8,561 nt of DNA from a virus (IMGVR_UViG_2778261354_000018:1-8561); one strand, 5' to 3'. Shown: positions 8,292-8,561, counted from the first letter of the stretch. The notes: generated by a model not told the origin, from the sequence alone. Numbers and translations are program-made.

Positions 8292-8420
8292 CGGCTGGAA
8301 GGATTACCTGAAGGCCGGATGTGGAAAGGCCCCGAGTCAACTAAACGTTAACCCGAGGCCCTAACCATCTAACCGTGACAAGTGGAAGGTTAGCGCCTCT
8401 TTGAAAAAGGAGCAAGCGCT

Positions 8421-8561
8421 ATGCCGCAAAAAACGATCATCGTAAGCATTTTATGCTTAACCATGTTGTTGACCGTCTGGATGATACACCGTTCACCGTG
8501 TGAGTTCAGACTTAACATCATGTGGTCAGAATTTGCGGCGTTCTTGCAGTGTAAACCGTAA
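8421..8561 (+). CDS. Small hydrophobic protein with Hok/Gef-like features (candidate type I toxin), 46 aa
   Basis: MPQKTIIVSILCLTMLLTVWMIHRSPCEFRLNIMWSEFAAFLQCKP. Basic N-terminus, one hydrophobic helix containing CLT.LL, then R-S-x-C-E-x-R and E-x-A-A-F motifs, paralleling Hok (..CLTLLIF..RKSLCEIR...EVAAFMAY) and HokB/HokD as I recall them. Strong AAGGAG SD 8 nt upstream of the ATG. Stop TAA is the last three bases of the window. Confidence 0.5.
   Translation: MPQKTIIVSILCLTMLLTVWMIHRSPCEFRLNIMWSEFAAFLQCKP

Follow-up and report, generated by a model that had tools for sequence, protein, structure and literature searches.

A probable mok-less hok/sok module at the right end of a P2-like prophage

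The viral DNA stretch IMGVR_UViG_2778261354_000018:1-8561, 8,561 nucleotides long and here called the window, closes on a small gene of the Hok/Gef toxin family, hok, which lies downstream of the late-gene activator gene ogr. The locus is probably a Hok/Gef toxin gene with the RNA architecture of a hok/sok system, lacking mok and carried as a moron between ogr and attR at the right end of a P2-like prophage. Its features are collected in Table 1. The original prediction had placed the candidate at 8292-8561; the open reading frame (ORF) within that span stands, while the limits of the unit do not, with a predicted promoter at 8240-8268, a transcript start at ~8275 and a further ~130 bp beyond the end of the window.

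Table 1. Features of the hok locus, in window coordinates.
Feature	Position	Strand	Description
ogr	7989-8291	+	ogr/delta-type zinc-finger late activator, 100 aa; Pfam Ogr_Delta, 58.5 bits
hok promoter	8240-8268	+	predicted by comparison; -35 TTGCGC 8240-8245, 17-nt spacer, -10 TACATT 8263-8268
tac, hok mRNA 5' end	8275-8291	+	predicted; GGGUGCCUUUCGGCUGA; partners 3' fbi (full-length mRNA) and ucb 8323-8333 (after 3' trimming)
ucb-like box	8323-8333	+	GGAAAGGCCCC; tac partner in processed mRNA (truncated fold)
Sok-like antisense RNA	~8379 to 8323	-	predicted, ~55-57 nt; 12-nt single-stranded 5' tail, hairpin, then UUUCC
Sok-target hairpin, processed mRNA	8355-8399	+	GAGGC 8355-8359 (classical 'mok SD') pairs with dcb GCCUC 8395-8399
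Hypervariable target of the Sok 5' tail	8361-8379	+	stands at the place of the classical mok start codon
sok promoter	8415 to 8387	-	predicted; -35 TTGCTC 8415-8410, 17-nt spacer, -10 TAACCT 8392-8387; start ~8379
Hairpin sequestering the Shine-Dalgarno (SD) sequence	8393-8420	+	outer GCGC/GCGC; anti-SD CUCUUU 8397-8402 with SD AAGGAG 8407-8412; GAAA loop
hok coding sequence	8421-8561	+	46 aa, ATG to TAA (stop 8559-8561); Hok/Gef family toxin

The toxin gene, its leader and a predicted antisense gene

The ORF encodes MPQKTIIVSILCLTMLLTVWMIHRSPCEFRLNIMWSEFAAFLQCKP and carries, exactly as first claimed, an N-terminal MPQK, C12-L-T14, C27-E-F-R, E37-F-A-A-F and C44. Its proposed Hok/Gef identity is confirmed by a Pfam profile search, in which HOK_GEF (PF01848) matches residues 9-44 at 27.8 bits (E 1.9e-6) against a gathering cut-off of 22, and by PHROG 251, a phage 'moron' family labelled MokW-like host killing (E 4.6e-19). 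The family logo holds seven residues that are more than 80% conserved among 1264 Hok sequences (M1, C16, T18, L30, C31, E32 and E41 in preprint numbering); six of these are kept here as M1, C12, T14, C27, E28 and E37, and logo L30 corresponds to P26. The Kyte-Doolittle profile (17-residue sliding average) has its maximum of 2.64 at residues 6-22 and lies near 0 over the C-terminal half, which fits the single N-terminal transmembrane helix proposed for the peptide.

The best-scoring named Hok equivalog in NCBIfam is NF007290 (HokA), which covers residues 1-45 at 37.9 bits and misses its curated cut-off of 89, as NF007279 does at 27.3 bits against a cut-off of 73; the peptide is thus neither HokA nor a member of the R1-type subfamily. 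Among 46 distinct intact coding sequences, the ratio of non-synonymous to synonymous substitution rates (dN/dS) is 0.27 within the group of MPQKTIIV... alleles, 0.19 within the group of MSQKSL... alleles and 0.24 between the two, and judged from these ratios the hok ORF is under purifying selection. The toxin had been described as possibly divergent, yet it is not an unrecognised one: an identical E. coli protein (locus L001) is named 'Hok/Gef family protein' in RefSeq (WP_001135720.1), and an 80%-identical relative, 82_1289, belongs to a published toxicity panel. The toxin itself is therefore already known as an annotated member of Hok/Gef, and the toxicity of this particular product is a prediction by analogy with 82_1289.

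The original prediction saw no antitoxin in the window. A Sok-like antitoxin gene is nevertheless predicted there, on the minus strand, because a conserved promoter of its own is followed by a strand-specific hairpin of Sok shape. The minus-strand RNA from 8379 to 8322 folds at -29.5 kcal/mol (z -5.3), against -13.7 kcal/mol (z -2.0) for the plus strand of the same stretch, whose fold is weaker because three G-U pairs turn into C-A mismatches. The hairpin has a core of 14 bp (8360 to 8328), or 16 bp in the minimum free energy fold, and compensatory changes are found in its upper stem. Its predicted shape is that of the annotated SokC and SokB, and Sok occupies the equivalent place opposite the leader in K-12 hokC and hokB. 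The promoter likewise has the geometry of the annotated sokC start: the sense block AGGTTAGCGCCTC (13 nt, holding the -10) and the sense CAAG are invariant in 63 of 63 aligned modules, as is the TTG of the -35 in the aligned modules.

The hok promoter is recognised by a -35 TTG and a -10 TAnAnT at constant spacing in 58 distinct leaders, in which the spacer and the upstream context are wholly different. The -10 ends 6 nt before GGGTGCC at 8275, the putative mRNA start, and here begins a match to Rfam RF01794 ('sok') that runs over the full model length to 8431 on the plus strand (46 bits, E 4e-9). In the K-12 hokC and hokB loci (L003 602-754 (-), L004 767-918 (-)) and in R1 the same model matches the hok-sense strand, which in K-12 is opposite to the annotated SokC and SokB. 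What it models is therefore not Sok but the 5' leader of hok, spanning the mRNA 5' end through to the hok AUG.

The RNA architecture was examined by folding a composite of window 8275-8561 and the tail of a 96%-identical relative, and helices were scored in an alignment of 63 sequences, with 62 distinct relatives, using slid partners as a control. Over all scored helices 92.4% of cells are paired, compared with 39-47% with slid partners. The tac-ucb helix is 99.3% paired, though nearly all of its pairs are invariant; the tac-fbi helix is 92% paired in the 62 distinct relatives, its 5' side being fixed by the search pattern and only one-sided changes being visible; and the GAGGC/GCCUC helix is 90% paired, again with one-sided changes only. 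Past the end of the window, every relative has a GC-rich hairpin, then an fbi element complementary to the first 17 nt of the mRNA, then a terminator. The 5' element that fbi would complement reads GGGUGCCUUUCGGC in the window, and the protective hairpin, found in all relatives, has compensatory changes at four of its nine pairs.

Two statements of the original prediction about the SD need revision. It was thought to be apparently unsequestered, but AAGGAG is predicted to pair with CUCUUU, leaving it unpaired with a probability of ~0.01 in the full-length fold; and its strength was taken as a departure from classical loci, but a strong SD is the family norm, AAGGAG being present in hokB and R1 hok as well. 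Across the 62 relatives the outer GCGC stem is 99.7% paired and the six SD/anti-SD pairs 75.8%, and nearly all copies retain the strong AAGGAG 8 nt from the ATG. Variability within the module peaks in the target of the Sok 5' tail (0.82 bits per column, with 29 variants of 17-21 nt in 63 modules), between near-invariant flanks, and tandem copies in one genome carry differing versions of it.

The absence of an overlapping mok-like frame, which the original prediction had pointed out, is upheld. The mok position reads ATC TAA (8367-8372), whereas in classical loci an ATG follows the GAGGC box at 6-9 nt (hokC and hokB with annotated mok, R1, and hokW according to its primers). We aligned 79 distinct module copies, drawn from contigs with the exact protein, contigs with the exact Ogr, other relatives and 80 IMG/VR viral contigs; none of the aligned copies has an ATG at the mok position, no frame is conserved among the 79, and the indels of the mok-position segment are not multiples of three. 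An upstream ATG, GTG or TTG ORF reaching the hok SD is lacking in 44 of 78 scanned copies, and the remainder have heterogeneous, non-homologous ORFs. Two candidate substitutes were rejected. The ATG at +45 (8319-8321), considered as a distant mok start, opens an ORF that stops within the leader in 68 of the 79 copies, with many lengths, and is conserved because of tac/ucb pairing; a 14-codon TTG ORF at 8401-8445, considered as a mini-mok, has a counterpart in only ~10 of the 78 scanned copies. Judged from this alignment, the entire widespread subfamily lacks mok; the lack is no lesion of the window copy, and it is the only unusual trait of the module. No earlier description of it was found in the literature searched; the Hok-diversity preprint did not analyse mok.

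Genomic context and biological role

The remaining window is ~90% identical to an E. coli P2-like prophage that encodes tape measure, gpE, tail tube, sheath, gpD, ogr and a 'Hok/Gef family protein'. Prophages with an identical 100-aa Ogr are integrated at two chromosomal sites, beside serS and beside flk, and identity between the two sets extends over hok and its terminator (...CTGCGGGCTTTTTTGT), after which they diverge. Since the shared sequence ends at this terminator, hok is the last prophage gene before attR. This comparison bears out the suggestion that the toxin gene is phage cargo, and it rules out hok as a chromosomal gene beside serS. The P2-like phage PhiR44_2 and one metagenomic contig share the order gpD-ogr-hok.

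We further note that the module is far more widespread than this arrangement. A query of ogr plus hok matches 902 of 5426 complete E. coli genomes at a minimum of 60% identity (mostly 80-90%), nearly all matches covering only the ~310-bp hok module; ogr plus hok together, at 95-96% identity, are found in 16 of the 902. In an assembly collection, 5815 indexed blocks contain the exact 46-aa protein, and contigs with the exact Ogr carry another hok allele. A protein-pattern scan of genome contigs matched 31 stretches, none confirmed by tblastn, probably owing to the 46-aa query. The 46-aa MPQKTIIV... and MSQKSL... alleles are found in prophages of P2-like and Stx type and also in the tandem islets next to serS, and the module is found unchanged downstream of lom in Stx phages, beside TraT and genes of integrative and conjugative elements (ICE), and in tandem arrays with no phage genes between the copies.

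The possible transcriptional link to ogr bears on the role of the module. The last 17 codons of ogr run through the hok promoter, and the stop codon of ogr (TGA, 8289-8291) is already part of the hok transcript, at its 5' end. Ogr has 100 aa here against 86 aa in relatives, which in the alignment end just after ...SLPL, so the window Ogr is extended; its frame has no stop before the module and crosses the hok -35, the -10 and the first 17 transcribed bases (8240-8291). As no terminator-like site lies between the two genes, ogr or late transcripts could enter hok.

Our first guess for the role of the module is prophage addiction, with help in lysis and exclusion of other phages as alternatives. 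Alternatively, Hok might mainly be an accessory of lysis or of the late genes, produced in the lytic cycle through read-through from ogr and late transcription, and act like a holin helper. This agrees with the entry of the ogr ORF into the hok transcript and the lack of a terminator-like site between them, and with hokW-sokW of Sp5, the only prophage hok/sok tested experimentally, which speeds lysis and doubles phage release (PMC8621323). However, hokW is a different, mok-bearing locus, the present module keeps its own conserved promoter, and it is found unchanged in unrelated contexts (lom, TraT/ICE genes, tandem arrays), so that its expression logic appears autonomous. We consider a mainly lytic role unlikely; it concerns what the module is for and is compatible with the molecular mechanism proposed below.

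Several further observations concern the distribution of the module. Tandem hok/sok modules stand beside serS at L005 5379-6207, L007 4910-6207, L009 5131-6207, L012 4657-6206 and in L014, as two or three complete modules 472-723 bp apart between the prophage end and serS. The repeat unit extends from the -35 of the hok promoter to fbi or the terminator, and the Sok-tail target differs from module to module; serial integrations and unequal recombination are both possible origins of these arrays. In Stx2 phages, a copy of the 46-aa subfamily lies intact downstream of lom, at 752-1105 in VT2-Sakai (L106, AP000422.1) and at 45660-45797 in 933W (AF125520), and is unannotated in the Sp5/VT2-Sakai and 933W records; because this copy is distinct from hokW-sokW, these Stx2 phages have two hok systems. 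In L013 (4219-5576), an insertion sequence (IS) element with a DDE_Tnp_1 transposase interrupts ogr and leaves a 64-aa fragment, the downstream hok module being intact; this prophage occupies a third chromosomal site, beside pgsA/uvrC. The window module itself is a mosaic (8275-8561 compared with L016 3287-3639 and L010 5853-6207): its first 97 leader nucleotides are identical to those of prophages with MSQKSL... alleles, and from ~8372 on it follows the MPQKTIIV... lineage, which implies recombination within the module.

Proposed control of hok without mok

The preferred reading, a mok-less hok/sok moron, suggests the following mechanism. The promoter within the end of ogr would drive an mRNA from ~8275 that encodes the single-pass membrane peptide, and the minus-strand promoter would drive a ~55-nt antisense RNA complementary to leader positions 8379 to ~8323. 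By the R1 hok/sok paradigm and the folding results, the full-length mRNA would be locked by 5'-3' pairing with its SD buried, and slow 3' trimming to the protective hairpin would free the 5' end, allowing the tac/ucb stem to form and exposing the Sok target. As in R1, the short-lived Sok, while it is made, would pair with the leader and the duplex would be destroyed; once the supply of Sok ends, the stable processed mRNA would be translated and Hok would damage the inner membrane. The conserved helices lend support to this series of steps. Given the lack of a mok leader ORF, ribosomes would load directly at the strong SD of hok itself.

The dcb/anti-SD segment could serve as a toggle, leaving the SD open when held in the target hairpin and closing it when paired with the SD, and binding of Sok would return it to the SD-closed pairing and set off decay. 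In the composite fold, the 5' end of the full-length RNA is paired with fbi, and truncation gives the tac/ucb stem and the GAGGC/GCCUC target hairpin. The mean unpaired probability of the SD is 0.01 in the full-length RNA, 0.54 after truncation and 0.01 after truncation with the Sok site blocked. Blocking the Sok-complementary stretch re-closes the SD because the freed GCCUCUUU re-pairs with it; the R1 control shows no such shift, its hok SD having a value of 0.50 in each state. These folds are consistent with the hypothesis that Sok could control hok directly, without mok, and Sok-triggered decay of the duplex may be an alternative to SD re-closing that is sufficient by itself. Three copies (L005+5854, L008 and L013) have a G to A change in the ucb box at leader +49 (GGATGTGAAAAGG) that costs one tac/ucb pair; in these the SD is predicted to stay closed after 3' truncation (0.01 in all three states), and the variant may be a naturally 'locked' form.

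Extended beyond the window, the same ideas describe a large mok-independent hok/sok subfamily of 46-aa MPQKTIIV.../MSQKSL... alleles, in which hok would be translated from its own SD, Sok would both re-close the SD and trigger decay instead of blocking a leader ORF, and the hypervariable Sok-tail target would allow several orthogonal copies to coexist in a single genome. We put this forward tentatively, as possible but somewhat less likely than not.

One challenge to a working module comes from R1, in which mok translation is mandatory for Hok production and mok start-codon mutants lose toxicity (PMC9841398). Lacking mok, the module therefore truly departs from the paradigm, and a mok-less copy could be silent. 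Several other points also weigh against a functional mok-less hok/sok moron. The switch in SD accessibility is weak family-wide, with medians of 0.32, 0.39 and 0.32 in the three states and a change above 0.2 in 6 of 71 modules; as it generalises weakly, we treat it as hypothetical. The Rfam score of 46 bits falls under the gathering score of 59, as do those of the present subfamily at large (36-49 bits, against 87-118 for classical loci), and annotation based on Rfam would miss these leaders. A strict sigma-70 and terminator scan found no site in 7900-8561; of the promoter scan proposed for both strands, the strict consensus search thus failed, and it is cross-copy conservation that supports both the hok and the sok promoter. 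The window stops at the hok stop codon, so that fbi, the protective hairpin and the terminator are seen in relatives only, and an exact-match scan of genome contigs with 8262-8300 gave no match, the nearest module being 96.3% identical. Transcript, toxicity and antitoxin of the window allele are, in sum, predictions from sequence and folding.

A rival view is that hok is a silent relic of a classical hok/mok/sok locus, made untranslatable by loss of the mok start and persisting only as hitch-hiking DNA or as a Sok/RNA decoy. It draws on the R1 experiments, in which stop codons upstream of the hok SD abolish toxicity as mok start-codon mutations do (PMC9841398), on the predicted pairing of the hok SD in full-length RNA with little opening after trimming in most relatives, and on the K-12 hokA and hokC loci, which are flanked or interrupted by IS elements. 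Set against this are the dN/dS values of 0.19-0.27 within and between the two allele groups, the retention of a strong SD at the same distance from the ATG in nearly all copies, the conservation of both promoters, tac, fbi and the protective hairpin, with compensatory changes, and the lack of mok across the subfamily, which is not that of a single damaged copy. We regard the relic as quite improbable. The reading of the ORF as a fortuitous frame, or as an unrelated small membrane protein whose Hok-like motifs are superficial, would accord with the modest scores of a short hydrophobic peptide (Pfam 27.8 bits, NCBIfam below the curated cut-offs) and is refuted by a Pfam score above the gathering threshold, the complete non-coding hok-locus architecture around the ORF, purifying selection and homologous modules in hundreds of genomes.

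Relation to known systems and meaning

The module resembles hok/mok/sok (parB) of plasmid R1 in its Hok/Gef toxin, in the order of its leader elements (tac, ucb, Sok-complementary hairpin, GAGG box, dcb, AAGGAG SD), in the protective hairpin, fbi and terminator of the 3' untranslated region, for which the window module relies on relatives, and in a cis-antisense Sok, here predicted, with a single-stranded 5' tail and one long hairpin. It differs in that R1 has an ATG 9 nt after GAGGC and requires mok translation (PMC9841398), whereas the mok frame is missing here; R1 Hok has 52 aa against 46 aa, R1 is plasmid-borne and the present module prophage-borne, and the R1 leader scores 87 bits in Rfam against 46 bits under the gathering score. 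K-12 HokA (NF007290) is the best-scoring named equivalog, at 37.9 bits far under its cut-off of 89, and its regulation is not comparable because IS150 interrupts the hokA leader.

Among prophage systems, hokW-sokW of Sakai prophage 5 (Takada et al. 2021, PMC8621323) is likewise a hok/sok module on an E. coli prophage. It is a type I toxin-antitoxin (TA) system dependent on RNase III and Hfq, and its faster lysis and release set a precedent for phage benefit (PMC8621323). HokW is, however, a HokC-like 51-aa peptide (MKQQKAM...) with another leader and, from the primers of the paper, a mok-type ATG after GAGGC. It occupies another locus in Sp5, and the lom-side 46-aa copy is not the one cloned or deleted in PMC8621323; identification of the window module with hokW was accordingly rejected, as the primers show a different, HokC-like locus. 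A related sequence in the literature is 82_1289 of Hok cluster '82' (Escalera-Maurer et al., bioRxiv 10.1101/2025.08.07.668861), identical at 37 of 46 residues (80%) and alike in length and motifs. It is among the 45 sequences cloned to test toxicity under arabinose induction, of which only three, 82_1289 not being one of them, are named as non-toxic, and the same 2026 preprint reports that hok is enriched in prophages and forms tandem 'islets' in Escherichia (10.1101/2025.08.07.668861). 82_1289 is another allele, and the preprint states that mok, Sok and mRNA elements lie outside its analysis.

A parallel in mechanism only is offered by aapA/IsoA of Helicobacter pylori, in which a long-distance 5'-3' lock on the mRNA is relieved by 3' processing. 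There the toxin's own SD is sequestered directly, without a leader peptide, in contrast with hok (PMC9841398, PMC5416894). The toxin and RNA sequences are unrelated, the host belongs to another phylum, and there is no homology.

As annotation, the window is routine: a Hok toxin and a predicted Sok antitoxin form a common E. coli prophage moron whose 3' regulatory tail is cut by the window edge. The wider interest is that the textbook hok/sok needs translation of mok, yet an abundant mok-less prophage subfamily keeps its toxin ORF under selection. If the proposed control is true, hok could be controlled directly at its own ribosome-binding site, as in the unrelated aapA/IsoA, and the subfamily would provide a compact natural system for how variable antisense-recognition segments prevent cross-talk among TA copies.

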